28,501 nt of DNA from an uncultured Myxococcales bacterium (GCA_964013405.1 CAXGWI010000030.1:1-28501), one strand, 5' to 3'; counted from the first letter of the stretch, positions 4,101 through 25,669 are shown. Program-made: numbers and translations. Notes: generated by a model from the letters alone, not told the origin.

Positions 4101-4509
4101 CCTGGTCGATGGACGCGAGCAGGGGGCCCGAGGAGCGACCATGGTCGATGACCGCCGGTTTGCGCTCGTTCAGCGGCGAAAAAGCCATGTCCCCGTAGTA
4201 ACGTTGAAGCCACGCTTCTGAGCGCGGCATCGCCTTTGGGCTGTGGGGGCTCGTCACCGGGCGCAGTCGAAAAAGGCCCGGGCGCAGCTCGGCCAAGGCT
4301 TCGATTCGGCCCAGCAATCGGTCCAAATCCGCTGGGCTGGCCAACTCGGCTCGAGGGATCCGTGCGAGCCCTGCATTGTCCAGCAATCGCCCGGCCTCGG
4401 CCGATAGGCGATCCCACTGTAGAAGGAGGTCACCGCCTTGGGTTTCCACCAGTAGACCGTAGGCCTGACAGGCCTCGGCCAATTCCTGCTCAAGGATCAA
4501 CGAGTCCAT
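1171..4509 (-). CDS. Fusion protein (1112 aa): class-III PLP aminotransferase (lysine 6-aminotransferase/GABA-AT-like) + GNAT acetyltransferase + degenerate second aminotransferase domain
   Basis: Aminotransferase motifs FANSGAEANEKAL, FKGSFHGRT, EAMQGEGGD, DEVQTG (3361-3378) and DLVSLAKKAQ (PLP Lys at 3265-3267). GNAT motif A is FRGQGLG (~2434-2454). A C-terminal aminotransferase-like repeat follows. Start moved from 4803 to ATG 4509 because AGGAG lies 7 nt upstream and this removes the overlap with the divergent gene. Confidence 0.85.
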   Translation of the reverse strand: MDSLILEQELAEACQAYGLLVETQGGDLLLQWDRLSAEAGRLLDNAGLARIPRAELASPADLDRLLGRIEALAELRPGLFRLRPVTSPHSPKAMPRSEAWLQRYYGDMAFSPLNERKPAVIDHGRSSGPLLASIDQEPLVFFDASSQIATHAWGLNPPAVLESMALGRFGDEPIANPDPTDETVDALEDFANALKIRAHGHFDHVAFANSGAEANEKALHIARRQGRGGHKLLAFKGSFHGRTLLPLHGTWNPVKREPFELAGFEACWLAYPRQIEPEIIPPMPEGWVEAWRTKPITASSQPALWQDFIGTLDPSAAALFEEEVAILLKAEATLASESVFAVLIEAMQGEGGDNHLSSRFLSGLLALCRRHDVPLIVDEVQTGMGLSGELFWHAALALEDENGEADAPDLVSLAKKAQLGVVLSRWPDPEPGEVQAASARRGLAHLEIFEATPTEAIAEFASRGLDDLASSLPAGLITRVRGRGLAWAIDLPSGAVINRMLSERFWRGYLTYIAGQNTLRFRLNAAMTEAQWTDLMTALRESLQQMIDDVGGFNDPAAFAEAVATLAPSPWQARGTWRPPRSGLPGGFRLEELSLPRLHELMDQVMVLEAEAYEPARRETPAGLTGFAELPGFIGHIILAPGGELAAFSMGAALEGFPGVDGCNSDPTWGQGTSFYSLEMLAGAGFRGQGLGRVLKSAQLDAAYQAGFDWVVGRNRVGGTREMAPLNRSVGAHLVQRLDGQYGEPEGQSDYYRIPLRPGAIEIPETSDFDGIDLAHGLQRPLGPRPPTLVAAANRGSLGGAISNKLSLCNFSTPDTIRFAETLQALRPRGCDHVLYTSGRDEMVDKGLRALKYNHREGQVVFSLEGTYVGHTTAAARSLSWGREGYFNWPSLPHPAAVGTAAALEALDTALQAHEGKVLALVCEIFGEESGLQLSDAYLEGLESRRQAGLKVCVVETSTGGFRGSAQHCFLSDATPLQPSQVWWYTGGQLGLVFCADEAWVEKPLQLISTWDGDELSMIRCNHHLRGAYRLREDLQQRSDQLAEAMAGLPGATSCGLQAFVPCDAPQEFTEELAAAGLVVKQRRTGLSIVPALNVTSEELARGLDLLQRRLS

Positions 4510-4614
4510 GACCCTGCTCCTAGGATGGCCCGGCTTCCATGGAGGCCCAACTGCCCGTTGTCCAGCCCCAAGCACAAAATCACGGGGGGCTGGTGCAGTC
4601 GCGCCGGGAACCTG

Positions 4615-4620
4615 TATGAT
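4615..4620 (+). promoter_or_regulatory. Candidate sigma70-type -10 hexamer (TATGAT) for the Cys-rich lipoprotein gene
   Basis: TATGAT lies 19 nt upstream of ATG 4640, ahead of a GGAG RBS (4630-4633). No clear -35. Confidence 0.35.
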
Positions 4621-4639
4621 GGTCCGGCTGGAGTTCCCC

Positions 4640-7218: not shown

Positions 7219-9228
7219 ATGGATCAACAGGGGCGTTTGGAGTTGATCGAGGCGGAAGCGGACGAGGGCGCCACTCCTGTTGGCGACGGGTCCGAGACCA
7301 GTCCGGCCCCTGTAGATTCCACCGACGCCGACTTGGGCGAGCGCGCAAACGACAGCCAGCCACCGGTCGCCGCAAAGCCGGCCCAGAGCCCGCCGAAGCG
7401 TCGGGCAAGTGCTCGGAGCATGGGGGGAAAGCATCGAGCGATCTCGATCAGCGAGTTCTTTACCAAGAACCGCCACCTTCTGGGCTTTGACAATCCAGCG
7501 AAAGCGCTTCTGACCACCGTCAGAGAGGCCGTCGACAACGCCCTCGACGCTTGTGAAGAGGCGGGCATCCTGCCGGATCTCACCGTCGAGATCGACCCGG
7601 TCGAAGGTTACGATGATCGCTACACGGTCCTCGTTCGTGACAATGGTCCGGGTATTATCAAAGCCCAGATCGGCAAGGTCTTCGGCAAGCTCCTCTATGG
7701 CAGCAAGTTTCACCGCTTGAAGCAAAGTCGCGGTCAGCAGGGGATCGGTATCTCCGCGGCCGGGATGTACGGCCAAATCACGACTGGACGCCCGGTGACT
7801 GTGATCAGTCGAACCGGAAAGCGCAGGCCAACCCATCGCATCGTGTTGCAAATCGATACACGCCGAAACGAACCCAAATACCTTAGTGAGGAACAACTGG
7901 AGGATTGGGATTGGGATCACGGCACTGAAATTATCCTGACCATCGCCGCAACCTTCAAGGGCGGTCGGCACAGTGTGGATGAGTACATGCGCCAGACGGC
8001 CATGAGTAATCCCCATGCCCATATCATTTACCGGAACCCGCGGGGGGTGGATTTGGTCTACGAGCGCCAAGTTCACGAGTTGCCCAAAGAGCCGGAAGAG
8101 ATCCAGCCCCATCCCCACGGTATTGAGCTCGGCATGCTCATGCGCATGCTGCGGGAGACAAAGCGCCGCAATCTCACGGACTTTTTGAAAGAGGAATTCT
8201 GTCGGGTCAGTCAGCGCAATGCGGAAGAGATCATCACAGAAACCGCCAAACGGGTTCCCGATCGGCAGCGCAACCAGATGCTACGGCGCAACCCCAAAGC
8301 GATGGAGCGCCATGAGGTCGAGGCCCTGTTCCAAGTCCTGGGCGAAACCCGGTTGCATAGCCCCCCGACCAACTGTCTGAGCCCCATTGGACACGAAGAC
8401 ATTCGCACGGGGCTTTTCGCCCTCTTCGACCCCGGCGACTACGATCCCAGTGAGTTCTTTGTCACCGGTGAAACTCGGCGGCCGGCTGTCTATCGGGGCA
8501 ATCCCTTCCAGGTCGAGGTGGGCATCGTCTACGGCAAGGGGCTGGAAGGGGACACCAGCGCAGAGGTCTATCGCTTTGCGAACCGGGTGCCTCTGCAGTA
8601 CCAGGCCGGAGCCTGTGCGATCACGAAAGCCGTGCAGTCCCTCAACTGGCGCCAATACAACCTGACCCAGCCTCGAGGCAGCTTTCCCGTCGCCCCCATG
8701 GTGGTCAGTGTTCACATCTCCAGTGCTTGGGTGCCCTACACCTCCGAGTCCAAGGAGGCCATCGCTCACTACCCAGAAATCCTGAGTGAACTACGTCTGG
8801 CTTTGCAGGTTTGTGCTCGCCGTTTGCAGCGTCATATCCGGCGGCAGCGTAAGCAGCGGGATGCGGAAAAGCGAAAGCAGTACCTCGAAAAGTACCTCGA
8901 TCCCATCAGTGAAGCCCTGCAAGAAATCCTCGGCTTCGATGAACAAGAAAAAGCCCGGGTTTCGGTGCAACTCACCGAGCTCATCGACCCCCAGGAGGTC
9001 GAGGAGGAATCGGAGGAGGAACTCGAGGTCGACGAAAACGTGGGTCGGCCAAGAGGGCGCACAGAAGTGGTGGCGGACCCGATTCCGGAGACAACTCACC
9101 TGGCTGAGGATGGGACCCCGGTAGGGACCGAGGAGGCTGTAGCGGAAGCAGAGACCGTTCCCGAGGCAGTGAAGCAGGAAGCGCAGGCGACGCTGGGGCT
9201 CGACCTGCCCGAAGGAGGTGAGGACTGA
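7219..9228 (+). CDS. top6B: DNA topoisomerase VI subunit B
   Basis: ISISEFF.KN...LGF; GHKL motifs EAVDNALDA, DNGPG, GSKFH..QSRGQQGIGISA and GTEI; transducer motifs RFANRVPL and SESKEAIA. Low-complexity N-terminal extension and acidic C-terminal tail. Confidence 0.97.
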   Translation: MDQQGRLELIEAEADEGATPVGDGSETSPAPVDSTDADLGERANDSQPPVAAKPAQSPPKRRASARSMGGKHRAISISEFFTKNRHLLGFDNPAKALLTTVREAVDNALDACEEAGILPDLTVEIDPVEGYDDRYTVLVRDNGPGIIKAQIGKVFGKLLYGSKFHRLKQSRGQQGIGISAAGMYGQITTGRPVTVISRTGKRRPTHRIVLQIDTRRNEPKYLSEEQLEDWDWDHGTEIILTIAATFKGGRHSVDEYMRQTAMSNPHAHIIYRNPRGVDLVYERQVHELPKEPEEIQPHPHGIELGMLMRMLRETKRRNLTDFLKEEFCRVSQRNAEEIITETAKRVPDRQRNQMLRRNPKAMERHEVEALFQVLGETRLHSPPTNCLSPIGHEDIRTGLFALFDPGDYDPSEFFVTGETRRPAVYRGNPFQVEVGIVYGKGLEGDTSAEVYRFANRVPLQYQAGACAITKAVQSLNWRQYNLTQPRGSFPVAPMVVSVHISSAWVPYTSESKEAIAHYPEILSELRLALQVCARRLQRHIRRQRKQRDAEKRKQYLEKYLDPISEALQEILGFDEQEKARVSVQLTELIDPQEVEEESEEELEVDENVGRPRGRTEVVADPIPETTHLAEDGTPVGTEEAVAEAETVPEAVKQEAQATLGLDLPEGGED

Positions 9229-10358
9229 TGGCTCGCAAAAAGACAATCGATCCGGAAAAAGCCGACGAAATCACCATCGATACGCTGGCAAAGCTGGCGA
9301 GGGGGATTCATCAGTCCATCAGTCGGGGCCGGTACCCAGAGCTCATCAGCCCCGTGCGCTCTCTTCAGAACGTGAAGGAGTTTCGTAAGCGGGTTGGCTA
9401 CCTTGAGATCGGTGAGAAGATCAAAACTCGGACCCTGTCGGTCAACACGGTCAAAACTTTTGCCCAGACCTTAAAGATGATGAGTCTCTCCAAGGACCTG
9501 GTTGAGACCAACGACTTCGCAACGAAGAGGGATGCTTATTACCAGTCCAAGAACTGGGGGCCGGCGGCTTTCAAGGATCAGCCTGAGTCGGACACGGTGA
9601 TGGATGATATCGAGGCGATGGTGAGTCGTTATGGTTTGGGGCGCGAGCATCTTCGCTACATTCCGGACGAGCACGGTGGCAGTGTCGCCGGTGCCCTCAA
9701 GGTCCACGATAAGGACCTTGAGACCGGTGAGCCCGAGGTGATCGATTGTACTCGCTTTGGTAGCGGCGCTTACTCCATCCCCAGTTGGGTGGAGCACCTA
9801 GACTTTGAGACGGACGCTGACTTTGTCCTGTGCATCGAAACCGCTGGTATGTTTCAGCGGCTTCAGAGCCACAAGTTCTGGCGCAAATACAACTGCATTC
9901 TTGTCAGCCTCGGCGGTGTGCCGAGTCGAGCCTGCCGCCGGTTCGTTCGGCGTCTGAGTGAACAGGCGAAGATCCCCGTTTACGCCTTTGTCGATTGCGA
10001 CCCCTATGGTGTCGCCAATATCTATCGGTCCCTGAAGGTTGGTAGCGGGAATGCGGCCCATGTGAACCATCTCTTCTGCGTCCCCCAGGCCCGTTTCCTC
10101 GGCGTGACACCCAAGGACATCGTCGATTACAAACTGCCGACCCATCCGCTCAAGGATCGGGATATTAAGCGGGCCAATGATGCCCTAGCCAACGACCCCT
10201 TCTTCCAGGCCCATCCCAAGTGGCAAAATGAGATTCAGCGATTGCTCGATATGGGCGTTCGCGCTGAGCAGCAGGCTCTTGCTCGTTGGGGCTTGAACTA
10301 CGTCATCGACGAATACCTCCCGGCGAAGCTGAAAAAGACCGGTAGTTTTCTCCCCTAG
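9228..10358 (+). CDS. top6A: DNA topoisomerase VI subunit A (Spo11-like)
   Basis: Catalytic-Tyr motif TKRDAYY, FxDQPESD, Toprim Glu motif IETAGMF, DxD motif DCDPYG, and AEQQAL. Translationally coupled to top6B through a TGATG overlap at 9226-9230. Confidence 0.97.
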   Translation: MARKKTIDPEKADEITIDTLAKLARGIHQSISRGRYPELISPVRSLQNVKEFRKRVGYLEIGEKIKTRTLSVNTVKTFAQTLKMMSLSKDLVETNDFATKRDAYYQSKNWGPAAFKDQPESDTVMDDIEAMVSRYGLGREHLRYIPDEHGGSVAGALKVHDKDLETGEPEVIDCTRFGSGAYSIPSWVEHLDFETDADFVLCIETAGMFQRLQSHKFWRKYNCILVSLGGVPSRACRRFVRRLSEQAKIPVYAFVDCDPYGVANIYRSLKVGSGNAAHVNHLFCVPQARFLGVTPKDIVDYKLPTHPLKDRDIKRANDALANDPFFQAHPKWQNEIQRLLDMGVRAEQQALARWGLNYVIDEYLPAKLKKTGSFLP

Positions 10359-10508: not shown

Positions 10509-13500
10509 ATGAAGAACCGACTCACAATCGCTCTAACCACAGTTCTGTTGGCAGCCTGTCCTTCCGATCCGGTCGACGACCCGCCACCGGTTATCGGTGG
10601 CGGTGGTGGTGGTGGTGCCGGGCCAGTCGAGCCTGTCGTGGAGCCTTGCCCGGAAGCCCAGGTGCGGGATCCCGTTGCGCAGACCTGTGTCGGCGCTCGG
10701 GGGGAAGGAGTGGTCCCGGCAGAGGGCTACTTCCGGACGGAGCATCCCTGGATCGCCCAGGCCCGTGGGAGCGCCGAATCAATTCGCTATCTCTTAGCCG
10801 ATGCGGCGGCCGGCGGTGACGGCCGGCTAGAAGCCCCGTTTCGAGATTGGGGTGCGGCCCTTGCTGGCTTGCAAGACGGTGATGATGTGACCTTTGTCAT
10901 CGGTCGAGGTGTCGTCGAGGGCGCGGCCTCCTTCAGCGGACTTGGGCGGGTCACCATCGTTGGTAACGCAGCCTCAGTCACCACGCTAAGCACCGAGGAT
11001 GAGCCTGTGATCGAAGCCGTCGGCACCGCTTGGTTGCGGGTATGGGGCGCCCGGCTCACTCGGACCGGCGAAGCCGTCGGTCCTGCTCTGCATCTCGAAG
11101 GTACAGGCCGAGTCCATCTTGCCCAGGTGCGTGTGGCAGCCACGGCCGGTGATGGTGTTCTTGCGACGGAGGCGGGCGCGGATGGCTTTATCCTCGGTTA
11201 CAGTACCTTTGAGAGCATCGCTGGGTCCGGGCTCAACGGTCAGGGCGCCCTGGGCTGGTGGACCGTCGATGAAACGGTGTTCCAAGGCCCCCTCGGTGCC
11301 GACGGGATCTCCCTCGTTGATTTCGGTGGTAGCCAGTTCCGAGTGTTTTCCTCTGAGTTTGCCGGCAACATTGGCGGTGACGGGATCTCATTGGTCGACT
11401 TCGGTGGTAGCCAGTTCCGGGTTTCTGAAAGCCGCTTCGCAGGGCCCATCGGTGGCGACGGCGTGTCTCTGGTGGACTTTGGCGGCAGCCAGTTCCGGGC
11501 GAGCGAGAATGTGTTCCAAGGGCCCCTTGGCGGAGATGGGATCTCCCTCGTCGACTTTGGCGGCAGCCAGTTCCGAAGCCATGACAATGTCTTTCAGGAG
11601 ATGGAGGGAAGTGCCCTTCACAGCGCCGGCGGTCAGGGGACGTTCTTGATGCAGAATGACCGAATGGAAGGCCCAATCGGTCGTGATGGTGTGACCATTA
11701 CCGGCTTCCAGGGTGAGGCGGTCACCATGAAGCAACTCCATCTCGGCGTCGTGAACCGCGTCGGGATTTCCGGCTCAGAATCGGCGGGCTGGTGGACGAT
11801 TGATGGGGCCAACCTTCAAGGCCCCATCGGCTTCGATGGAATCAGCCTTCGTGGGGTGGGTGAGGACAACGCTCGGGTCAAGATCTCCAGTGTCGAGGCT
11901 GAAGGCATCGGTCGAGTCGGTATGCGTTTGACCGAAGGTTTGGGCTGGTGGACCGTGGATGAAACCGTGTTTCGCGGCACGGGCGGAACCGGTGTGATGG
12001 CCCAGGGCTTTACGGCGAACAGCAGCCTTGAAATGAGCGGCGTAAGCGTGACTGGAGCCCATGGCGTAGGCATGGTCTTCGATGCCAATTCGGCAGCTAT
12101 CGAGGTGGCAGACGCGGAGATCTCTGAAACCGTCGGCCAAGAACAAGGTGGGGCCAACAGGCCCGGCCCCGTGCTTGGTTACGGTCTGCTGGTGATGGAC
12201 AGCGCCCACCTCGCTGTCTTGCGGAGTCAATTCATTCGCAATGCCGGCAGCGGTCTTCTCATCGACCTCCGGGGCTGGGGTGCCCGGCGTGATCGACCCG
12301 ACCTCAGTGGTGAAGCAACCATCCGCTTGGACACGGTCGAGATCGAAAAAGAGCCAGGCGCAGCCGAGAACCAACCGGAAGCGCAAGCGCAGAATGTTCC
12401 GGAGGGCGTGAGTATCGCCGGTATGGGCGATCGACCGCCGGGTCCTGAGGCACCGGCCCAAGACCTGCCGCAGCCGATGGAGGCAGAAGAAGCCGGTTGT
12501 GGCGATGGCGTCGTCGATGCGGCCATTGAGGAATGTGACGATGGCAATCAAGATGATGGCGATGGCTGCACCCGATTGTGCAAGGCCAATATTTGTGGCG
12601 ATGGCATCGTCAACCGGGGCGTTGAGGACTGTGACGATGGGAATGACATCAATCACGGCGATGGCTGTTCCAATGTCTGTGTCGCACCCGACCGAATCCC
12701 TTATGATGGGGGCGTCTTCAATATGGGGAATGTGGGCGTCGATGCCCGACCGTTCAACGTGACCGTGCAACCCTTCAGCCTCTCCCGGACGGAGGTCACT
12801 TGTGACGAATACAGTGACTATCTTCTTGAGACAGGAGCGGCTTTCGATGTGATGAAGGACGGTTCCGTCGAAGATAACCTTGAAGCAAACGTGCCTTCTT
12901 GGAATATGCTTTACGGTGGTGATTGGCAGGGCTCATGTGCGCTGCCGGACGGCTGGCCTCATGCGAGATACAGTGCCAACGCACCGGCTGAAGACGGGTA
13001 CATCGTACCGCTCGGGACACCGGCAGCAAGCCAAGAATTGGATTTGCCCGGGGCCGATACATTGCCGATGGACACGGGCGGCAATGGCGCCACTCGGCCT
13101 TTCGAGTATTATTACTTAGTGCGGCGATTCTATACGGGGCGAGTGGTTTCTGGGGCTTATCTCGATATCTACCATCCCAACGCCGCGATCGCTGTCTACG
13201 TGGGCGGTCAATTGGTCCACACCTCGGGTATGGCGAGCCCGGCCTGTGACAGTGCGCTGACTCAAGTCAGCCCAGAGGGGGCGACTCGGGTGCTGCTCAA
13301 ACAAGCTGACCTCAATAATTTGAATCACTACTATCGCTACCACCAATACGTCGCTGTGATGCTGAGGCCCCTGAATCAGGAGGTGGACGAGCTCGGTTTC
13401 GCCATGCGCTTTCGTGCCTGGGGTGCGAGCGTTGGTGAGAACCCCTTACCGTGGATGGATGGGGCCCATCACCGGTTGAGCGCTGCCGGCCAGGCGTTGT

Positions 13501-14048
13501 GTGGTGCGGGCGACTACCCCATGGCGCTGGACTGGGACAAAGCCCGGGAATTCTGTCGCTGGTATGGCGGCGACCTGCCCACTGCAGCCCAATGGGAGTA
13601 CGCTGCCCGTAATGAGGGCGAGCAGACCGCGTACCCGTGGGGTGACCGACCGACGATCGATCGGTCGCCAGCTGGGGACAGTCAAGCCTGTCAGTACGCC
13701 AACAGCAGTGGGCCGGGCGGGCGTAATGCCTGCGAGCACGTGGGCCTAAGGACGCCGGTTTGCGCCTATCCTCTTGGTCATACCGAGCAGGGAGCCTGCG
13801 ATATGATCGGCAATCTCGCCGAGTGGACCCTTGATGGTGAAGGGGCCATTGCTGCCCATGGTGAAGGTGGTGATCGGCCCCAGCGCACCCCCCATTTCTG
13901 GGACCCCGAGGCTACCTTTACGGTTCGGGGGGGATCGATGGTCAAGACCCGGTCTGCTCATACGGCGACCAGCGAGTTCCGTCGACGTGATGGCGACAAT
14001 GATGATGCCGCCTACGACGTGGGTTTCCGCTGTGCATGGCCCCGTTGA
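10509..14048 (+). CDS. Large lipoprotein (1179 aa): parallel beta-helix repeats + 2 Cys-rich repeats + FGE-sulfatase (SUMF1/CLec-fold) domain interrupted by a jelly-roll insert; paralogue A
   Basis: Lipobox LLAA|C and beta-helix cap motif GDGRLEAPF. Contains 4x DG[IV]SLVDFGGSQF and 2x CGDG/CDDGN. FGE motifs: FNMG, RTEVT, W..A..FC.W.GGDLPT.AQWEYAAR, YPWG, G.CDMIGNL.EW, RGGS, GFRC. Confidence 0.88.
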   Translation: MKNRLTIALTTVLLAACPSDPVDDPPPVIGGGGGGGAGPVEPVVEPCPEAQVRDPVAQTCVGARGEGVVPAEGYFRTEHPWIAQARGSAESIRYLLADAAAGGDGRLEAPFRDWGAALAGLQDGDDVTFVIGRGVVEGAASFSGLGRVTIVGNAASVTTLSTEDEPVIEAVGTAWLRVWGARLTRTGEAVGPALHLEGTGRVHLAQVRVAATAGDGVLATEAGADGFILGYSTFESIAGSGLNGQGALGWWTVDETVFQGPLGADGISLVDFGGSQFRVFSSEFAGNIGGDGISLVDFGGSQFRVSESRFAGPIGGDGVSLVDFGGSQFRASENVFQGPLGGDGISLVDFGGSQFRSHDNVFQEMEGSALHSAGGQGTFLMQNDRMEGPIGRDGVTITGFQGEAVTMKQLHLGVVNRVGISGSESAGWWTIDGANLQGPIGFDGISLRGVGEDNARVKISSVEAEGIGRVGMRLTEGLGWWTVDETVFRGTGGTGVMAQGFTANSSLEMSGVSVTGAHGVGMVFDANSAAIEVADAEISETVGQEQGGANRPGPVLGYGLLVMDSAHLAVLRSQFIRNAGSGLLIDLRGWGARRDRPDLSGEATIRLDTVEIEKEPGAAENQPEAQAQNVPEGVSIAGMGDRPPGPEAPAQDLPQPMEAEEAGCGDGVVDAAIEECDDGNQDDGDGCTRLCKANICGDGIVNRGVEDCDDGNDINHGDGCSNVCVAPDRIPYDGGVFNMGNVGVDARPFNVTVQPFSLSRTEVTCDEYSDYLLETGAAFDVMKDGSVEDNLEANVPSWNMLYGGDWQGSCALPDGWPHARYSANAPAEDGYIVPLGTPAASQELDLPGADTLPMDTGGNGATRPFEYYYLVRRFYTGRVVSGAYLDIYHPNAAIAVYVGGQLVHTSGMASPACDSALTQVSPEGATRVLLKQADLNNLNHYYRYHQYVAVMLRPLNQEVDELGFAMRFRAWGASVGENPLPWMDGAHHRLSAAGQALCGAGDYPMALDWDKAREFCRWYGGDLPTAAQWEYAARNEGEQTAYPWGDRPTIDRSPAGDSQACQYANSSGPGGRNACEHVGLRTPVCAYPLGHTEQGACDMIGNLAEWTLDGEGAIAAHGEGGDRPQRTPHFWDPEATFTVRGGSMVKTRSAHTATSEFRRRDGDNDDAAYDVGFRCAWPR
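11301..11576 (+). repeat. Four in-frame coding repeats (78-nt period) encoding DG[IV]SLVDFGGSQFR
   Basis: Units start at 11301, 11379, 11457 and 11535. Differences within the core are almost all synonymous. Confidence 0.95.
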
Positions 14049-14090
14049 TTCCGGCTTTACGGGCCGTTTGAACCCTAGGGAGTATTGGGG

Positions 14091-17000
14091 GTGATCATTC
14101 GAAGGATAGCTGTTCCGTGGGTCTGCATCCTGCTCATCGCAGGTTGCTCGGGCGAATCTGCGGACCTGGCCCTTGGGGGCGAGTCCGGTCGAGCTCCTGG
14201 TGAGTTACCTGGAGGCACCAATGGCATAGATGTTGGTGACCTGCCTGCGGACCCCTTTGATGAGCCCTGCGTCGAGCCTCTGGTGCATGATCCGATCGCT
14301 GGCTACTGCGTGCCCGCTCGCGGTGAAGGGCTCAGCCCCCAGGAGGGGCCTTTTCGAACCCGCCATCGGTGGTTGCAGGAAGCGCAGTCAGCGCAGGAGG
14401 TGATCCGATACGTCGTCCCCGGTCTTCCTCCGGGTGGGACGGGCGCGCCAGAATCACCTCTAGGTAGTTGGGCCGGAGCGACCGATAACCTTCCTGCCGG
14501 CGCTGATGTCACATTCCTTGTGGGCCGAGGGCGGGTCGACGGGACCCTCGAGCTCTCGGGACTGGGCCGCGTGTCAGTGATTGGAAACGCGGCTGCGGTC
14601 ACAGCCCTGCGAGCCGATAATGGGCCCGTTTTGGCTGCGGAGGAAGTGGGCGCGTTGCGACTCTGGGGCCTGGCGATTGAGCGAGTGGGGGATGATCCGG
14701 GGCCTGCGTTGGAGCTTGCGACGACGGAAGCATTTCTGGCGGGCCAGATTCGGCTCGTCTCCAGCAGTGGTGATGGCATCGAGTTCCGCGGGGGCGGTGA
14801 CGGTGGCCTTCAGATCAGCCACAGCCATTTCTTGGCGATCGCTGGCGATGGTCTGCGAGGGGTGGAAGCACTCGGCGGTTGGACCATCGATGAGACCGTC
14901 TTCCAGGGGCCTTTCGGTGGTGATGGGATCTCTTTGGTCGACTTCGGTGGTAGCCAGTTTCGCTTCTCAAACAGCGAGTTGAACAACATCGGTGGTGATG
15001 GGATTTCGTTTGTCGATTTCGGCGGCAGTCAGTTCCTCGTGGACAATGGCACGTTGAATTCAGTGTCTGGTGACGGCATCTCCTTGGTCGATTTCGGTGG
15101 CAGCCAGTTTCGGGTGATGAACAGTCAGTTCGAAGGCCCCATCGGCGGCGATGGGATTTCGTTGGTCGATTTCGGCGGCAGCCAATTTCGCAGTCATCAA
15201 AACCGTTTTGCCAGCATCGATGGCAGCGGGATCTCGAGCCGCGGCGGGTCCGGCACATTCACGATTGAGGAAAGCCAGATGGATGGCCCGATCGGTCGCG
15301 ATGGAATCACGATCGTCGGCTTCTCCGGTGCGCGGGCCCATATTGGATCGATCGAGATGAGAACCATTGGACGGGTCGGTATTTCAGTGCGGGATGCGCT
15401 GGGCTGGTGGACTGTCGATGGTGCCAATTTTCACGGCCCAATCGGCTTTGATGGCCTGCAGTTCATCGGGGTTGGAGAGACCGGCAAACGGGTGAAGCTC
15501 ACCAATCTTGGTGGTGATGGGGTCGGCCGTGTCGGGATGCGGTTACTCGATGGCCTGGGCTGGTGGACCGTAGACGGTGCGAACTTTCGCAACACCGGTC
15601 AAATGGCGGTTCAGATCTCGGGCTTCTCGCCAGAAGCGGCCTTCGACCTTCATCGGCTGTCTGTTGAGGGGGCGAGCGGAATCGGTGTCATGATCGACAG
15701 TACAGCGGCGTCGATCGAGTTGAGCGACAGTGACATCGACGAGACGGCAACCCGGCCCCAGGGGGGGGCTCAAGCACCGGGCCCGGCATTGGGCTACGGG
15801 CTTCTCGCCAAGGACGTGGGCCAACTGGCTGTGCGTCGCAGTCAATTTCGCGGCAATGGAGGCACAGCCATCGTTGTGGACTGTCGTGGTTGGGGCGCCC
15901 GGCGGCGGCGGGGCGATCTCCAGGGCAGTGTTCGCTTGGAACTGGACGATCTCGTGGTCGAAGACAGTGAGGGGACACCGGTGGGTGGCTCCGCGATGAG
16001 AACACAGAATATGCCCGCTGGAACCGAGGTCTGGGTCGACGGAACCCTTCGCCGGGAGCAGTACGAGGACGCGGCCCAAGAAGAGATGCCTGAGCTCGAG
16101 ATGGGGCTGCCGGGCTGTGGCGATGGTGTCGTCGACGAGATGATCGAGGAATGTGATGATGGTAACGACAGCGACAACGACGCTTGCACGGCGAACTGTT
16201 TTCTCAACGTCTGCGGTGATGGATTACATCACGTAGGCTTCGAGGAATGTGATGATGGCAATGAAGTGCATCACGGCGACGGTTGCAACAATGACTGTGA
16301 AGCGGGGGACCGGGTTGTTATTCCTGGCGGCTCTTTCGTCTATGGAACGATATCCAATGCCTTCAATGGGCTGCCGGAAACCCAGGTGGATGGCTTTTTC
16401 ATGAACCGCCATGAGGTGACCTGCGAAGAATTTGGTGCGTACTGGTCCGCCTCCGGTTCGACGCGTGTGGTGCTTTCAGACGGTAACAATGGAGCTGGCG
16501 ACCATTCTTGGTATTTGGATCCGCATGAGGGTGTGGTTCCGACGGGCTGGCCCTTTGCGACATTCGATGCTGCCAGTCCGCCGGAGGATGCCGCGTCGAT
16601 GCTTTCGACGCCTGCGCAAGAAGCAGTCTTCCCGCAGAATAACGTTGTGGCTGGCGAGGGTGAACGGTGGGAAAAATATTATCTTTTCCGTCGCTTTCGA
16701 CACAACCGGCGCATTAGTGGTGGTTTTATCGATGTCCACCACCCTGGGGCTGCTATCCGGGTGTATTTAGCGGGGCAATTGATTCACCAAGCCGGTTGGC
16801 CCGAGGCCGGCGATAACTCGCCTTTGGTCCCCGAATCGACCAATGGCATGAGCCGAATTTTACTGAAGGATGAAGCCATTGAGCACCACAATGACCATTG
16901 GGGTGCATGGAAGTACATCGCCATCGAACTGAGGCCCTTCCCTCCGGGCGACGGCCATGATCAACTCGCTTTTGCGCTGACTTATAAGGTTTGGAATCAG

Positions 17001-17684
17001 ACCTTCCAAACGCCTCGCAAGCCTTGGTTTAACCAACGTGGGGAGCACATCAGCACAGGGCACGGACAGTTGCTCTGTGGTGATCCCCGGTGGCCTGTTG
17101 CGATGGATTGGCACAAGGCGCGAGATTATTGTCGCTGGCACGGTGGGGATCTCCCCACGGAGGCGCAGTGGGAATATGCCGCTCGGAACCTGGGTCAAAA
17201 CATCAAATATCCGTGGGGCAACTTACCTCGGATCACGGCAAGCTATAGTGGTGGGCAAGTGGCTTGTGAATACGCCCATACAAGTGCTGACACTGCCCCT
17301 CAGAACTGCCCAGACTCCGGCATCAAACTTGAGGTCTGCTCGCGGCCATTGGGCAACACCGAGCAAGGCCTGTGTGATATGATCGGAAACATGTGGGAAT
17401 GGACTCTGGATGGCTACAGCGAAGGACATCGGGATGGCATCGATAATGATCGAGATGGTCATGTCGATGAGCGTAATGAACTCCTTGTGCCCAGCGCATC
17501 GGGTTTGCCACTGACGAGCCGCCCTTCATTCTGGTCCGGCAGCAGTTTGTATGTTGCCCGAGGCAGTTCCTCTGCCAATACGATTGGGTCGTACACGACC
17601 GGCCGATTGGGCCGGACGGCAACTTGGTTTCAGGGCCAAGCCAGTGTCGACTTCGGTTTCCGATGCGCGTGGCCTATCGAGTAG
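14091..17684 (+). CDS. Large lipoprotein (~1197 aa) with the same architecture as 10509-14048; paralogue B
   Basis: Lipobox LIAG|C. Colinear with paralogue A throughout (ARGEG..P.EG.FRT.H.W, DFGGSQF x4, RGWGARR, CGDG x2, FGE motifs ending GFRCAWP). GTG 14091 is preferred over TTG 14085 because GGGAG lies 8 nt upstream. Confidence 0.88.
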   Translation: MIIRRIAVPWVCILLIAGCSGESADLALGGESGRAPGELPGGTNGIDVGDLPADPFDEPCVEPLVHDPIAGYCVPARGEGLSPQEGPFRTRHRWLQEAQSAQEVIRYVVPGLPPGGTGAPESPLGSWAGATDNLPAGADVTFLVGRGRVDGTLELSGLGRVSVIGNAAAVTALRADNGPVLAAEEVGALRLWGLAIERVGDDPGPALELATTEAFLAGQIRLVSSSGDGIEFRGGGDGGLQISHSHFLAIAGDGLRGVEALGGWTIDETVFQGPFGGDGISLVDFGGSQFRFSNSELNNIGGDGISFVDFGGSQFLVDNGTLNSVSGDGISLVDFGGSQFRVMNSQFEGPIGGDGISLVDFGGSQFRSHQNRFASIDGSGISSRGGSGTFTIEESQMDGPIGRDGITIVGFSGARAHIGSIEMRTIGRVGISVRDALGWWTVDGANFHGPIGFDGLQFIGVGETGKRVKLTNLGGDGVGRVGMRLLDGLGWWTVDGANFRNTGQMAVQISGFSPEAAFDLHRLSVEGASGIGVMIDSTAASIELSDSDIDETATRPQGGAQAPGPALGYGLLAKDVGQLAVRRSQFRGNGGTAIVVDCRGWGARRRRGDLQGSVRLELDDLVVEDSEGTPVGGSAMRTQNMPAGTEVWVDGTLRREQYEDAAQEEMPELEMGLPGCGDGVVDEMIEECDDGNDSDNDACTANCFLNVCGDGLHHVGFEECDDGNEVHHGDGCNNDCEAGDRVVIPGGSFVYGTISNAFNGLPETQVDGFFMNRHEVTCEEFGAYWSASGSTRVVLSDGNNGAGDHSWYLDPHEGVVPTGWPFATFDAASPPEDAASMLSTPAQEAVFPQNNVVAGEGERWEKYYLFRRFRHNRRISGGFIDVHHPGAAIRVYLAGQLIHQAGWPEAGDNSPLVPESTNGMSRILLKDEAIEHHNDHWGAWKYIAIELRPFPPGDGHDQLAFALTYKVWNQTFQTPRKPWFNQRGEHISTGHGQLLCGDPRWPVAMDWHKARDYCRWHGGDLPTEAQWEYAARNLGQNIKYPWGNLPRITASYSGGQVACEYAHTSADTAPQNCPDSGIKLEVCSRPLGNTEQGLCDMIGNMWEWTLDGYSEGHRDGIDNDRDGHVDERNELLVPSASGLPLTSRPSFWSGSSLYVARGSSSANTIGSYTTGRLGRTATWFQGQASVDFGFRCAWPIE
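14922..15191 (+). repeat. Four in-frame coding repeats (75/75/78-nt period) encoding DGIS[LF]VDFGGSQF
   Basis: Units start at 14922, 14997, 15072 and 15150. Confidence 0.95.
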
Positions 17685-17716: not shown

Positions 17717-18124
17717 TCACTCTCTTGGGGGGGTCATGGCCTGATGACGATCTCTTCCTCGTTGTGCTTCCCGGCGACGCATCCACTGACCGATGCCGAT
17801 GGCAGCCAGCCACGCGCTGGCGAGAGAGAGCCCGCCGATCTCCCGGCCGAGTTCGATGCCTGGCGATTCGGCCTGCATGGACTGGGCAAGATGGGCCCAA
17901 TCGAGAAATTGGTGATGTGCTTGGGCAAGATGACCGGCCCAGCCGGCCCCGATGGCTGCTACGGCAACGCAAAAGAATGGACCCAGGCGTGCGGTATAGG
18001 AAAAGCCAGCGAGGGCGGCGCAACCATAGAAGGCGATCCAGGGCAGGGGGTCTGGGTCATTGTACTGCAGTGCGGCAGAAAGGCCCATCAGTGCGCTGAC
18101 GACCAAGTTCAATTTCGCCCACAT
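17717..18124 (-). CDS. Transmembrane 220 (TMEM220) family protein
   Basis: Family signature A.LQYNDPDP..W...Y and C-terminal E.GRE..GL, with about four hydrophobic helices. Confidence 0.8.
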   Translation of the reverse strand: MWAKLNLVVSALMGLSAALQYNDPDPLPWIAFYGCAALAGFSYTARLGPFFCVAVAAIGAGWAGHLAQAHHQFLDWAHLAQSMQAESPGIELGREIGGLSLASAWLAAIGIGQWMRRREAQRGRDRHQAMTPPRE

Positions 18125-18207
18125 GGTGATGGCCCCCGAACCTTCAAGGTTGAGAGGCCATATGGATCTCGTGGTGACAAGTCCTGGTCGCTAGCTTAGG
18201 TGCCGGT

Positions 18208-19314
18208 ATGGCTCGCATCCTCCATTTAAGCACCGTTCATCCGGCCAGTGACCCTCGGATTCTTGAAAAGGAAGCAGCTTCCATGGCTGCGGCTGGGCAC
18301 GATGTGACGGTTTTGGCTCGGTTTGCCGAGGGGGCAATGGCTCGGGGGCGTGCGCTGGGCCTGCGGGTTGAAACCCTCGCCCAGCAAAGGAGTCGTCGAG
18401 GACGCCTGCTAGACCAGTTGGGGCTTGATGCCCGTATCGCTCGTCTGCGCCCCGACTTGGTTTTTATTCATGACCCTGAACTCCTGCCCTTTGCCAATTG
18501 GCTGAAGCGAAGGGGCTATGGAGTGGTCTACGATGCCCACGAGGACCTACCGTTGCAGTTGTTGTCCAAGCCGTGGTTGCCGGCCTGGGCCCGAATGCCC
18601 GCAGCCATGGCAACGGTAGTGGCGCAAAAACCACTGCTGGCTCGGCTTGATGGTCGTCTCGCCGCCACTCAGCCCGTGGCCGAGAGTCTTGGGCTGCCTG
18701 CGACGGTCGTGCGTAATTTTCCTGATCTGCGCCAGTTCCCGAAACCGGTGGCGCAAAAGGAGAGGCAGAAGCTTTTGGTCTATGTGGGTGGGCTCTCGGA
18801 GATCCGTGGCCTGCGGGAGATGATGGCGCTCCTTCAAAGCCTCCCTGATTATCGCCTTCGGTTGGTGGGGGCCTGGGGCTCCGAGGCCTTACGGCGTTGG
18901 GCTGAGCAGCATCCAGCTTGGTCGCGCGTCGAAGCCACGGGGCCTTTGACCCATCAGGAGGCCCTTGAGGCCATCGCACCCGCTCGGCTGGGACTCTGTC
19001 TCTTACAGCCTCGCCCAAACTACCTAGAAGCATTGCCCACCAAGCTCTTCGAATACATGGCCCTGGGGATCCCCGTACTCGCCAGTAACTTTCCCTTGTG
19101 GCGAGACATCGTGGAAGGTGCCGACTGCGGTGGCGTCGCGGACCCAAGCAAGCCGGACCAGGTACTGGCCGCTGCTCAGACCATACTGAAGGCGAGAGGC
19201 CAAGGCCGGCGGGGGCGCATTGCCGTGCGCGATCAATACTCCTGGCAAGCCGAGTCAGAGCACCTTGTTGCCTTTGTCGACGACCTTTTGGCGCTGCGCG
19301 TTAACTCCGGTTGA
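18208..19314 (+). CDS. Glycosyltransferase family 4 (GT-B fold)
   Basis: HLSTVH...DPRI..KE, HDPEL, YDAHED, YVGGL...RG, P.KLFEYMALGIPVLASNFP and YSW. A TAGCTT -10-like hexamer at 18192-18197 is 10 nt before the ATG, suggesting a short leader. Confidence 0.93.
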   Translation: MARILHLSTVHPASDPRILEKEAASMAAAGHDVTVLARFAEGAMARGRALGLRVETLAQQRSRRGRLLDQLGLDARIARLRPDLVFIHDPELLPFANWLKRRGYGVVYDAHEDLPLQLLSKPWLPAWARMPAAMATVVAQKPLLARLDGRLAATQPVAESLGLPATVVRNFPDLRQFPKPVAQKERQKLLVYVGGLSEIRGLREMMALLQSLPDYRLRLVGAWGSEALRRWAEQHPAWSRVEATGPLTHQEALEAIAPARLGLCLLQPRPNYLEALPTKLFEYMALGIPVLASNFPLWRDIVEGADCGGVADPSKPDQVLAAAQTILKARGQGRRGRIAVRDQYSWQAESEHLVAFVDDLLALRVNSG

Positions 19315-19346
19315 TTTGGGCTGAGCGTCCGCGGGAGGGTGTGGCT

Positions 19347-19598
19347 TTACTGGTGTCTTAGGACCCGTTGCATCTCGTCTTTGAGGCTGCCGTTTTCTGC
19401 GGCTTCCTGGTCGACCTTTTGCTGTACAGACAGACTGACGTGGTCGATCACCCGTCGCGCCCGGGCTCGATCATTGGCCAATCGCCGGGCTCGACTATCG
19501 TAACGCTGCTCTGTTGCAGCCTCGCGCTGAGCACGCAATTCGGCGATGCGAATGTAGGGGGCCGCTGAAGGGCCGTAGCTGACGCCTGGAAATGCCAT
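19347..19598 (-). CDS. Small hypothetical protein (83 aa, charged, helical)
   Basis: Fills the gap between the GT4 and GH13 genes. ATG at 19598 is preceded by GGAG and a sigma54-like motif. Confidence 0.55.
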   Translation of the reverse strand: MAFPGVSYGPSAAPYIRIAELRAQREAATEQRYDSRARRLANDRARARRVIDHVSLSVQQKVDQEAAENGSLKDEMQRVLRHQ

Positions 19599-19607
19599 CG
19601 GGACTCC

Positions 19608-19623
19608 AGCTACAAGAATGCCA
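19608..19623 (-). promoter_or_regulatory. Candidate sigma54 promoter (TGGCATTCTTGTAGCT) for the 83-aa ORF
   Basis: TGGCA-T with exact GG-N10-GC spacing. The -12 box is TAGCT rather than TTGCW. Confidence 0.4.
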
Positions 19624-19663
19624 CAGATTGGCAGCAACAGCCAAAGGCTGGCAAACCCCCATC

Positions 19664-21961
19664 ATGAAGACACATTTCTTACTCCCGCTGCTCCTGTTCA
19701 TTGCCTGCGATGGTGAGCCGGTCAGCCCCCCAGATACGGGTTGGGGCACAGACGCCGGTCAGCGCCTTGATGGTGGCGATGGGCCTAACCCAGTCACCGA
19801 TGGGGGGGCAGCACCGGTTGCTGATGCCGGGCCTGGTGAATGTGGTGCGGTGACCTTCTTTCTCGATACCCGTTCCTGGGATGAGCAGCCCCAGCAGGTC
19901 TTGGTGGCCGGCAGCTTTAATGACTGGGATGGCAGTGAGCACGCCATGCTCCTCGGTGATGAAGGCCTGTATCAGATCCTTTGGGATGGCCCCCCCGGGC
20001 GCTATGCCTACAAGTTTGTCGCCGATGGACGCTGGATTCGAGACCCGCACAATCCTCGTATCATCGATGATGGTGAGGGGAACGCGAACAGTCTACTCGT
20101 TCATGACTGCGAGCCCCGGCTTGAGTCGCTCTACCTGCTGGGTAAAACGCCCAGTGCTGTGGGCTGGCGACTGAACTTCTTTGCGCCGGGTCTGGACGCA
20201 TTGGCGTGGAGCCTAAACCGGGTGGCCCTAGCCGAGGAATCCATCCTGCGGACGGCGACAACGCAACAACTGAATCTCAATTTGGTCGACGGGCAGATCC
20301 ATGAAATCCGGGCGAAGTTGGGCGAAGCCCAGCGTTTGATTCATTTCAGCGAGGGCGTCAGTGAGGATTGGCGCAACAGCCTTCTCTACTATGCGGTTAC
20401 CGATCGCTTTCGCAACGGCGAGCCGGACAACGACAGTCCGATCGCCGATGTCCCCCAAATCACCAATTATCGAGGCGGGGATTTCGCAGGCCTGACCCAG
20501 GCTTTGGAGGAGGGGTATTTTACCGATCTCGGTGTGGGCGCGATCTGGATCACCTGGCCCCTCGACAACCCAGAAGAGGCAGAGACCAGTTCGATCGTGG
20601 ATGTCGACCCCTTCGAGCGCCAGTGCAATGTGAATCCCTATGATCGAGGTCTACCTCGTCAGGATCGAAGGTTCTCTGGCTTCCACGGCTATTGGCCCAA
20701 GGACTTCTCTACCCTGGAAGAGCACTTTGGGACCGTCGCTGAACTGGAGCGGTTTGTCGCCGCCGCCCATGCCCGCGGCATTCGGGTTATGTTCGACCTC
20801 ACCGCGAACCACGTGCATATCAGTGGTTCCGTTTATCGGGATCATCAGGCCGATGGCTGGTTCAATGAGCCCGCGCGGGTCTGTGGCTGGGAAGCTGATT
20901 GGGAGCTTGAGGGCGAGACCTGTTGGTTTACCCCCCAACTCCCCGACTTAGCGCTGCAGCGCCCGGAGGTGCGTGAGGCCCTCCTTGATGCCGTCTTCTC
21001 TCTGGTGGAGCAAACCGGTGCGGATGGGTTCCGTGTGGATGCGGTCAAGCACCTCCCCCGGGTGTTTTTACGGGATCTCCGTCAGGGCGTGCGGGCCCGC
21101 TTTGAGGGGGGAGGAACCGGCTCCTTTCTGACCTTGGGCGAAACCTTCAGTGGGGATGCTGCTTCGGTCGCCGCCTACGTGGGCGAAGACGCCATGCACG
21201 GTCAGTTTGACTTCCCGCTCAACATGGCCCTGTTGGAAGCTTTTGCCCTTGGTCAAATCGGGATGCGCCAACTGCATGAGCGAGTTGTAGGGATCCAAAA
21301 TGCCTATGGAGGGGCGCCGATGAGCCCCTTTGCGGGTAACCACGATATCGCTCGCTTTGTGAGCTTGGCCGAGGGTGGGTTATGCGGCGCTTGGAACATG
21401 GGCGCGAACCAGGCCATCGCCTGGCAGGATCCCCCGGCGCCGCCGGCCACCGATTTACCCTACCTCCGCCTACAGCAGGCCCTGACCTATGCCTATTTCA
21501 TCCCCGGCGTGCCGCTGCTTTATTACGGTGATGAGTTCGGCATGCCCGGGGCTGGAGATCCGGACAATCGCCGCATGATGCGCTTCGGGGCTGAACTCAA
21601 CGAGCGAGAAGCGCGCACGTTAAGGTTCGTGCAGGACCTTGGTCAGGCCCGGCAAGCGATCTTGAGAGAAGGGGCAGGCTTCCACGAGGCCTGGCGCCGG
21701 GAGTGGTGGTGGGATGGACAGGTTCTCGTGTTTGCGCCCACGCCCGATAGTTTTGTGGCTTTGAACCGGGGACCTGCGCGGCGGATCGAGTTGTCGCTGG
21801 ATCCGGATCAAAACGTTGCGGCTGGTGGTGCGTGGTCTCGTGTTGTCTGCGGGGGGCAGGACTGTGGGGGGCGCACGGAGGCATTGGAACATCGCCATGG
21901 CTCCGGTCAGACCCTCGATCTACCCACTGAATCGGCGAGCATCTGGCGGCATCGTCGATGA
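19664..21961 (+). CDS. Alpha-amylase family (GH13) lipoprotein with an N-terminal CBM48/AMPK-type glycogen-binding domain
   Basis: Lipobox LFIA|C. CBM48 motifs VAGSFNDW and YKFVADGRW..DP.NP. GH13 regions TDRFRNG, GGDFAG, FHGYW, DLTANH, GFRVDAVKH (nucleophile), LGETF (acid/base), GNHD and GVPLLYYGDEFG. Start set at ATG 19664 so the protein begins with the signal peptide. Confidence 0.93.
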   Translation: MKTHFLLPLLLFIACDGEPVSPPDTGWGTDAGQRLDGGDGPNPVTDGGAAPVADAGPGECGAVTFFLDTRSWDEQPQQVLVAGSFNDWDGSEHAMLLGDEGLYQILWDGPPGRYAYKFVADGRWIRDPHNPRIIDDGEGNANSLLVHDCEPRLESLYLLGKTPSAVGWRLNFFAPGLDALAWSLNRVALAEESILRTATTQQLNLNLVDGQIHEIRAKLGEAQRLIHFSEGVSEDWRNSLLYYAVTDRFRNGEPDNDSPIADVPQITNYRGGDFAGLTQALEEGYFTDLGVGAIWITWPLDNPEEAETSSIVDVDPFERQCNVNPYDRGLPRQDRRFSGFHGYWPKDFSTLEEHFGTVAELERFVAAAHARGIRVMFDLTANHVHISGSVYRDHQADGWFNEPARVCGWEADWELEGETCWFTPQLPDLALQRPEVREALLDAVFSLVEQTGADGFRVDAVKHLPRVFLRDLRQGVRARFEGGGTGSFLTLGETFSGDAASVAAYVGEDAMHGQFDFPLNMALLEAFALGQIGMRQLHERVVGIQNAYGGAPMSPFAGNHDIARFVSLAEGGLCGAWNMGANQAIAWQDPPAPPATDLPYLRLQQALTYAYFIPGVPLLYYGDEFGMPGAGDPDNRRMMRFGAELNEREARTLRFVQDLGQARQAILREGAGFHEAWRREWWWDGQVLVFAPTPDSFVALNRGPARRIELSLDPDQNVAAGGAWSRVVCGGQDCGGRTEALEHRHGSGQTLDLPTESASIWRHRR

Positions 21962-25575: not shown

Positions 25576-25619
25576 CTTGCCGGTTCTCCTACGGGCCCTC
25601 TGCCTGCGTGGGCCAGGGA

Positions 25620-25649
25620 TTGGCAAGGGGGCTCGGCCTTGGCTAGCCT
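25620..25649 (+). promoter_or_regulatory. Candidate sigma70-type promoter (TTGGCA-N18-TAGCCT) for the second Cys-rich lipoprotein
   Basis: Intergenic, ending 20 nt before ATG 25670 and upstream of a GGAGG RBS. Confidence 0.35.
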
Positions 25650-25669
25650 GTGCCCCACGGAGGTCGTCC

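Follow-up and report, generated by a model that had tools for sequence, protein, structure and literature searches.

Two Neighbouring Genes Encode Predicted Lipoproteins with the Same Repeated Octapeptide

We analysed a stretch of 28,501 nucleotides from an uncultured Myxococcales bacterium (the window, taken at its full length), in which two neighbouring plus-strand genes, A (10509..14048, 1179 aa) and B (14085..17684, 1197-1199 aa, starting at TTG 14085 or two codons later), are predicted from their sequences to encode surface lipoproteins that each carry the octapeptide VDFGGSQF four times. The octapeptide is one of several words that the paralogues of one genome have in common and that change from species to species, and selection for sameness among the copies is the probable cause. 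The two proteins are 44% identical and have the same architecture. Near the N-terminus is a lipobox-like sequence, LLAAC in gene A (10545..10559) and LIAGC in gene B (14133..14147), which we take to be lipoboxes; there follow a right-handed beta-helix (gene A, 10770..12398, about residues 88-630, with approximate limits drawn from PF13229 and the structural model), two cysteine-rich acidic repeats matched by profiles (DUF4215/TIGR02232; 12495..12680 in gene A and 16116..16298 in gene B) and, at the C-terminus, an FGE-sulfatase-like domain of the C-type lectin fold (PF03781), the main stretch of which lies at 13506..14039 in gene A (E 2e-29) and at 17016..17672 in gene B (E 4e-28). Inside this last domain of gene A, a galactose-binding-like jelly roll is predicted at 13059..13427 (approximate limits, weak model), which reached Z 10-11 to the sugar-binding domains of GH2 in a C-terminal model with a mean predicted local distance difference test score (pLDDT) of 42.6, the jelly-roll part lying at 60-80. 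By alignment, the insert extends to gene B.

On the plus strand, the octapeptide starts at 11316, 11394, 11472 and 11550 in gene A (periods of 26, 26 and 26 residues) and at 14937, 15012, 15087 and 15165 in gene B (25, 25 and 26), so that a six-frame scan bore out the eight exact copies, four per gene with a period of 25-26, reported in an initial annotation of the window. Together with the five residues before it, it makes up a longer D-type word, found in gene A as A1 (11301..11339, octapeptide 11316-11339), A2 (11379..11417, 11394-11417), A3 (11457..11495, 11472-11495) and A4 (11535..11573, 11550-11573), and in gene B as B1 (14922..14960, 14937-14960), B2 (14997..15035, 15012-15035), B3 (15072..15110, 15087-15110) and B4 (15150..15188, 15165-15188). 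The five leading residues had been described as almost invariably DGISL, and this is so in six of the eight copies, with DGVSL in A3 and DGISF in B2. A second word, G[WG]WT[VI]D(ETV/GAN)[FL] (the W word), which the initial annotation did not list, occurs three times in each gene. In gene A, the first copy, GWWTVDETVF (11253..11282), is identical in all ten residues to the third (11943..11972), which lies nine rungs away, and the second is GWWTIDGANL (11787..11816); in gene B, GGWTIDETVF (14874..14903) is followed by two copies of GWWTVDGANF (15402..15431 and 15558..15587). The stretches of about 12 residues between the octapeptides, which had been thought to differ freely, do not: they retain the beta-helix pattern, with an inward Phe in 4/4 repeat rungs of gene A, and GP[IL]GG recurs in several of them.

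The codons of the octapeptide are only partly free to vary. Every codon variant named in the initial annotation is present, but two copies differ on average at 3.6 of the eight codons, compared to 4.8 expected from the codon usage of the window (3.25 within one gene and 3.9 between genes A and B), and Gly is always GGT or GGC (16/16), Ser always AGY (8/8) and Gln mostly CAG (7/8).

Since DFGGSQF occurs 11 times in a six-frame scan of the window's genome (G000; 244 contigs, 94% complete) in only three genes (the eight copies in the window and three in gene C on contig C27), and since the back-translated pattern gave 10 matches in this genome and its reversed control none, the array is not a chance occurrence. 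It is not an assembly artefact either, as it is present in contigs of public sequencing runs and in the orthologues of genes A and B in a second genome, G001. One of these contigs (X2), possibly from the source sample, covers 11328-11493 with 0 differences, and two others cover 11456-11705 (X6) and 11225-11413 (X7) with 3 and 4 differences, respectively; this coverage of the window is thin and consists of contigs only, their joints derive from paralogues and relatives and indicate no rearrangement, and those from RNA runs do not prove expression. Recent tandem duplication or misassembly could in principle create such an array. The copy number does vary, gene B having four rungs in G000 and five in both G001 and the homologue P0004, and whole double rungs have recently been duplicated in two other genes (exact runs of 37 and 32 bases; G003). 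For the eight copies of the window, however, this origin is refuted by the codon differences, by spacers that are orthologous between species and by the independent contigs, and we consider it highly improbable; selection on the protein, rather than recent duplication, had also been the view of the initial annotation.

The Octapeptide Is Predicted to Form One Rung of a Beta-Helix

The beta-helix regions scored 36.6 and 41.8 bits with PF13229 (curated cut-off 25.9), and AlphaFold, supplied with an alignment of 26 rows, modelled that of gene A as a right-handed parallel three-sheet solenoid (pLDDT 94.5, predicted template-modelling score 0.90). Among solved structures, the closest folds are those of AlgE epimerase modules, GH110, the RbmB lyase, the PfbA adhesin and tailspikes (Z 27-30, 8-15% identity); the superposition on AlgE4/6 gave Z 30.0 over 315-321 aligned residues with a root-mean-square deviation of 2.5-2.7, and the best Foldseek E value was 3.5e-5. 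At the profile level (Pfam and NCBIfam), genes A and B matched none of PL1/PL6, AlgE or GH28/87/110, nor any autotransporter barrel family, the C-terminus being FGE-like.

In the model, the octapeptide would be one rung of the helix and its four copies adjacent rungs, in keeping with the stack of four identical rungs that had been proposed. Sixteen rungs of gene A were aligned by the model strands, with side-chain directions taken from strand alternation and not from coordinates. On this basis, the Ile and Leu that precede the octapeptide and the Phe that ends it point inward, at positions that are hydrophobic in 75-100% of the 12 other rungs, whereas the alternate, outward positions of the motif rungs hold Ser, Val, Gln and Arg. 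The Asp of the octapeptide is at a turn position, where 6/12 other rungs have Gly, and Phe-Gly-Gly-Ser forms a loop. The invariant residues are thus not all buried, since Val, Asp, Phe, Ser and Gln would be at the surface or in a loop.

Two kinds of repetitive solenoid were rejected on the pattern. Ice-binding beta-solenoids present a flat face of Thr-x-Thr ladders, whereas Ser/Val and Gln/Arg face outward in the four rungs. The calcium-binding RTX beta-roll is built of a nine-residue Gly/Asp repeat, while the period here is 25-26 and no RTX family of Pfam was matched.

The Lipoproteins Form a Small Family of Old Paralogues

Homologues are few, with 5 matches among 7991 candidates scored and 25 among 1.84 billion representatives; 3 of the 22 retrieved were unrelated, P0012, P0024 and P0026 being cysteine-repeat proteins and not homologues. 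In a profile search (E 1e-25), the lipoprotein family was present in 5/5 other genomes of the window's own taxonomic family and in 0/395 other genomes of the phylum, and an atlas search with a homologue yielded a single lead, whose score of 0.78 fell short of the 0.9 threshold. The named relatives are labelled Myxococcales or Myxococcota, and the public runs that match the window are marine metagenomes by record. No Pfam or NCBIfam profile is specific to the family, some members of which (P0007) end in RCC1-type repeats instead of the FGE-like domain.

Outside the repeats, paralogues are 19-51% identical (A-C 24%, D3-D1 26%, X-Z 24-29%), whereas the orthologues of A, B and C are 63-65% identical and form fully supported gene-wise groups in the tree. 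The A/C, D and X/Z paralogues are therefore old, as judged from their sequences. Gene C of the G001 species is represented by the metagenome contig L047, assigned by cluster membership, as G001 itself shows no gene C; L048 and L050, with no family gene among their listed open reading frames (ORFs), were dropped as motif sources. A further paralogue (L065-L069; G001:C111, G002:C47, G003:C57, G004:C56, G005:C24) has beta-helix character and the same N-terminal module and lacks identical rungs; it serves as a natural control and shows that sameness is not needed for the fold.

The Repeat Words Are Uniform within a Genome and Differ between Species

VDFGGSQF is not a constant of the family. Other members have DFGGTQF, DFGGSGF, DFSGSGF or unrelated words, the variable positions being Leu/Val/Ile before the octapeptide and Ser/Thr and Gln/Gly within it, and the D word is absent from the sister genus and from the paralogue without identical rungs. 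Copies of one genome tend to agree: P0004 has Thr for Ser in 5/5 copies, and the residue before the octapeptide, Leu in G000, is Val in G001. In a second group of paralogues, the word is WTVQDN in 12/12 copies of G000 (three genes on two contigs) and WTLEDN in 9/9 copies of G001, and in the sister genus it is GPLGGEGVF in G002 (8/8), GPLGGDGVF in G004 (6/6) and GPISGEGVF in G003 and G005 (9/9); one more G004 gene, retrieved after these counts, carries the G004 word. One genome holds two or three such dialects, and the diagnostic positions include the inward Leu/Val/Ile and rungs that are not adjacent.

As these counts rest on patterns that permit variable positions and omit degenerate rungs (gene Y of G002 and G005, for instance, has one at its first GP loop), we also made a pattern-free recount over 15 within-genome and 28 cross-genome pairs of non-orthologous paralogues. 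Exact 10-mers in common numbered 9.0, 18.8 and 17.0 within a genome compared to 2.8, 2.7 and 3.3 across genomes, and the longest common block had a mean of 16-26 residues within a genome and 10.5-12 across. Hence, in six genomes of one family, exact blocks of 15-40 residues recur among the paralogues of a genome, whose identity elsewhere is only 22-48%, while orthologous blocks differ between species. The initial annotation had not foreseen this uniformity, which spans paralogues on other contigs, is genome-specific and includes buried positions and non-adjacent rungs; nor had it noted the traces of short gene conversion described below. Its expectation that the motif would be conserved among homologues held only in part, the word changing between species and subfamilies, and because of these changes the fixed Asp/Ser/Gln ladder that it had proposed for one universal ligand (ice, mineral or calcium) does not fit.

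In the G001 species, a change seems to be under way. At the diagnostic site, Val is coded GTY in 8/8 copies, compared to 307/484 Val codons in the same loci, while the flanking codons differ; given this GTY bias, the Ile to Val change looks young. Ile persists in copy B5 of G001 and, in B4, in 1/10 strains, and a sweep from Ile to Val is likely in progress.

Two words were also seen outside their usual places. In genes X and Y (L037, L040, L038, L006), a ten-residue rung-corner word is repeated in tandem and takes the place of the loop at a second corner, both copies carrying the species' version. LGVRGPLS or a one-letter variant is found at four places in genes V, X and Y (L036, L037, L039, L040, L064) that are not structurally equivalent, with differing codons.

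Silent Sites Do Not Follow the Residues

In the 14 longest within-genome blocks, the codons are the same at 137 of 295 positions (46%), and in the 40-residue block common to X and Y of G005 (31% identical elsewhere) at 17/40, with a longest DNA run of 17. The mean residue difference is 0.055 between copies of the same gene, 0.083 between genes of one genome, 0.162 between orthologous copies and 0.174 between non-orthologous copies of different species, whereas codon identity is 0.528, 0.477, 0.509 and 0.460, respectively, with an orthologous excess at p 0.045; these comparisons pair D1 and D2 with Db, whereas synteny favours D2-Db and D1-Da, a choice on which the tree is undecided. The genome label explains the residues in 6/6 sets (permutation p 0.0005-0.019) and hardly explains the codons (within minus between identity -0.011 to 0.031, p 0.049-0.58). 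Thus, the silent sites are not homogenised like the residues, with exceptions in 2/14 blocks.

Between G000 and G001, a silent residual of 9% (standard error 1%) remains over 6375 sites in 12 gene pairs, one of which is possibly a wrong-frame ORF, so that silent sites are not fully saturated; under equal rates, this residual corresponds by our arithmetic to a silent distance of about 2.4. In the species of the sister genus, it is 2-12%. Serine offers a slower marker, as a switch between its two codon families needs two base changes (PMC6872785, from the part of the text available). The family is retained at 325/334 (97%) orthologous sites between G000 and G001 and at 358/426 in the sister genus, but differs at 8/26 Ser inside the identical blocks (which overlap). 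In gene C, the Ser codons are AGY, TCN and TCN in both species, though three residues have changed in all three copies (the Leu/Ile seven codons upstream of the Ser and two of the W word), and species-specific Ser is coded TCN in 1/9 and 1/4 copies. The Ser codon family hence follows orthology and not the genome. Silent identity shows no rise beside the diagnostic codons, with residuals of -0.01, 0.13 and 0.04 at distances of 1, 2-3 and 4+.

Neutral Gene Conversion Fits Poorly

Short gene conversion has happened. Exact DNA runs of 30-38 bases occur within the D genes (only five rows for the lipoprotein family were used from the genome-wide exact matches of at least 30 bases), and the mean run length is above that of a column shuffle in 5/15 sets. 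Ordinary concerted evolution, in which short-patch conversion seeded in conserved cores acts together with plain purifying selection and fast silent saturation, would account for such traces with neither selection for sameness nor a special partner. In its favour, silent alleles, long DNA runs and shared-codon blocks are all present, codon identity within a gene exceeds expectation (0.52 compared to 0.445), the paralogue without identical rungs shows that the fold does not need sameness, and blocks common to proteins about 25% identical elsewhere require a transfer of DNA at some time. However, it calls for a silent distance of at least about 30, compared to about 2.4 from the residual under equal rates, and it sits badly with Ser families that track orthology within 7-14 codons of homogenised residues and with the lack of a silent peak at diagnostic codons. 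Mismatch repair would hinder exchange at 76-80% identity, and its loss was rejected as a cause of easy conversion, since MutS was found in 5/5 genomes and MutL in 4/5, the miss being in a genome that is 59% complete.

We ran a coalescent model of neutral conversion on three motif sets with eight parameter pairs, 150 runs each, and whole-motif or per-codon tracts. At a silent distance of 3, at best 1.3-2.7%, 0% and 1.3-2.7% of the runs met the data of the three sets (at most 4, 0 and 4 of 150); at a distance of 10, these values were 1.3%, 0% and 5-13%, and at a distance of 30, they were 3%, 1-3% and 41-43%. The neutral model therefore fits badly and would agree with the data only if silent distances were some tenfold larger than measured, and we regard ordinary concerted evolution as improbable, albeit less so than a reader of the unfolded chain (see below).

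Probable Selection for Sameness among Copies

The reading that we prefer is selection for sameness among the copies, aided by rare short-patch conversion, to which we give a probability of roughly 0.7. A new residue would enter one copy by mutation; the others would be reached partly by rare conversion of 15-40 bases and partly by parallel point mutation, after which the silent sites would drift apart and the peptide could not.

Several observations weigh against this reading. Conversion may do more than the model allows: two cross-contig blocks share 17/21 and 13/21 codons, DNA runs of at least 20 bases exceed the codon-usage null (p<0.05) in 4/15 sets, and two strains that are 98% identical show five consecutive silent codon differences in copy A4, where one allele equals copy A3 at four of them (no exact donor for the L045 version of A4 was found among 23 copies). 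With strong silent-rate variation, the real distance might be as large as 10-30, a range in which neutral conversion does fit the motif of the window (0.05-0.43), although such variation would rescue the model more easily for this word than for the other two sets. The uniformity is also incomplete: eight copies of G001 have Val and one has Ile (three further Ile copies come from L047), and the W words of A and B are not all alike, a Ser variant occurring in 7/8 strains. Finally, only six genomes were available, the copies are not independent and most sets were chosen by pattern.

Four explanations were considered, which we rank with like-with-like contact first, followed by a periodic glycan, neutral conversion and a reader of the unfolded chain. 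In the first, a rung would meet the same rung on a sister chain, by side-by-side association or by rung exchange, so that each dialect group (A/B/C, D1-D3, X/Y/Z and V) would be one co-assembling set; the rod would be held on the cell surface by its lipid anchor and would bind something else with its tip, of the lectin-fold or RCC1 type. Stacking within one chain accounts for the four neighbouring rungs in A and B. It does not account for W words separated by nine rungs, for rungs that alternate, as in C and D, or for the other genes, and a common ligand explains the other genes but not the inward Val/Leu/Ile. The diagnostic positions include inward ones and non-adjacent rungs, which neither a ligand nor the stacking of one chain would tie together, and like-with-like contact is ranked first because it covers both the other genes and the inward positions and gives the dialect groups a meaning. 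Three points tell against the contact: the loci have no neighbour gene in common that might point to a partner, the motif rungs lie mid-domain in the model, not at an open end of the beta-helix, and the misplaced ten-residue word and LGVRGPLS are left unexplained by like-with-like packing. We hold it only tentatively, at less than even odds. Its fullest form, in which all sister beta-helix lipoproteins would carry a species-private peptide barcode, kept by selection for protein identity and not by DNA copying, with rungs of the same word locking or swapping, is more speculative still. Were it true, a surface layer or cell-cell adhesive would assemble only from the chains of one group and one species, which would amount to protein-level concerted evolution serving as a self-recognition code in marine Myxococcota.

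The same signature of selection would arise if all motif rungs bound a species-specific periodic glycan (an own exopolysaccharide, or a prey or particle glycan) and every copy followed a change of ligand, a lineage-specific form of the ladder proposed in the initial annotation. Beta-helix enzymes bind polysaccharide at the first sheet and its loops, and the invariant Asp, Ser, Val, Asp and Phe would line this sheet and its two loops. The nearest folds (AlgE epimerases, GH110, RbmB lyase and PfbA adhesin), the C-terminal lectin fold and the predicted sugar-binding jelly roll point the same way. On the other hand, conservative inward Val/Leu/Ile changes are uniform as well, two or three dialects per genome would call for several ligands, and fold matches at 8-15% identity show no function; a glycan thus seems unlikely, if somewhat less so than ordinary concerted evolution.

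A species-specific chaperone, exporter or modifying enzyme (such as a Ser glycosyltransferase) that reads the words in the unfolded chain would explain the inward positions, and it alone accounts for the misplaced words, LGVRGPLS in its four contexts as well as the ten-residue word in two loops. In both G000 and G001, the second gene after gene B is a GT4 gene. No candidate reader was identified, however, no neighbour gene is common to the loci of different paralogues (14 regions compared), and the several dialects of a genome would need several readers, which makes this explanation quite improbable. In summary, like-with-like contact heads the ranking of what might impose sameness, and selection for sameness itself is the better supported claim.

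Gene Neighbourhood and a Retroelement Elsewhere in the Genome

Directly upstream of gene A, the window holds the topoisomerase VI B and A genes (7219-10358, plus strand), the A subunit being 98-99% identical in G001, and after gene B, at 17717-21961, come a small membrane protein without a Pfam match, the GT4 glycosyltransferase and a CBM48/alpha-amylase lipoprotein, the last two of which are syntenic in G001. Further away are an AAT/C45-type acyltransferase gene (86-1174, plus strand) that converges with a gene for a 1210-aa class III aminotransferase (1171-4803, minus strand) with three matched stretches and a long unannotated middle, and two DUF4215 repeat proteins (4508-6598 and 25487-28147). 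DUF4215 repeats are widespread in this genome, where a simple pattern finds at least two in 118 of 1732 long ORFs, and one nine-residue word occurs 85 times in 57 ORFs.

The FGE-type lectin fold is used by target proteins of diversity-generating retroelements. No template repeat matching the 3' ends of A and B was found in the G000 assembly (94% complete), and targeting of the two genes was rejected for this reason; the template on contig C5 matches only its local target. That contig holds a complete-looking diversity-generating retroelement (G000:C5:910-2699), not targeting A or B, with a reverse transcriptase (1049-2134, minus strand), an Avd-like ORF (2002-2460, minus strand), a template (2604-2699) and, where an FGE-like ORF ends, a variable repeat (910-1005) with 13 mismatches in 96 bases relative to the template. 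A second reverse transcriptase, a 440-aa frame with YTDD, lies at G000:C131:4565-5884 (minus strand).

Discussion

Common silent sites are the usual sign of concerted evolution, and a shared protein sequence whose silent sites are random is usually attributed to constant purifying selection. The lipoprotein family described here fits neither: ancient paralogues of one genome have identical blocks of up to 40 residues, and these blocks differ between species and are written in nearly random codons. It makes a compact, countable test case for uniformity selection among gene copies. Kondrashov et al. reportedly described functional uniformity for tuf duplicates in 2007. The natural dialect swaps of one to three residues are ready reagents for identifying the partner of the rungs. 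Were this partner another such rung, the words would form a self-recognition code; were it a glycan, the rungs would be tunable periodic binding modules. In the literature searched, from which subscription journals were mostly absent, no publication on this lipoprotein family, its evolutionary pattern or such a self-recognition code was found; the fold and the domains are known, and the pattern and the family are not previously described there.

Like other PF13229 beta-helices (the A-modules of AlgE4/AlgE6, PL6 lyases, PfbA, pertactin and phage tailspikes), the proteins share the fold, a rung length of 22-26, inward aliphatic and aromatic ladders and Gly/Asp turns. They are unlike these systems in that they are 8-15% identical to them, have no identified catalytic site, contain exact repeated words of 8-20 residues and combine a lipoprotein with DUF4215 repeats and an FGE-like or RCC1 tip. 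In antigen 43, a surface beta-helix, sequence variation acting through polar residues of the surface tunes self-association (PMC8993888, as far as its available text goes). This protein offers a precedent for the like-with-like reading, by an analogy in which association of the present lipoproteins is only proposed, and it is an autotransporter, whereas A and B are predicted lipoproteins without a barrel match.

With regard to the evolution of repeats, homogenisation without a change of copy number is rare and partly selective (PMC5120217, in the portion available); in the cases given there, it occurs within one protein, whereas here it extends across ancient paralogues on different contigs and is found in all six genomes. 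Concerted evolution by gene conversion in prokaryotes, as described in the accessible part of PMC6053082, resembles the present case in that the paralogues of one species are closer than orthologues, here at the motifs, but there silent and replacement sites behave alike over whole genes, while here blocks of 15-40 residues are affected and silent sites are near random. The criterion given in the same part of PMC6053082 for histone-type birth-and-death evolution with purifying selection, an identical protein with divergent silent sites, also applies, yet the peptide of the lipoproteins changes with the species, and constant purifying selection would not produce such a change. Hence, on what this portion of the source sets out, the lipoprotein pattern agrees with each of the two modes, classical concerted evolution and birth-and-death, in one defining feature and departs from it in another.

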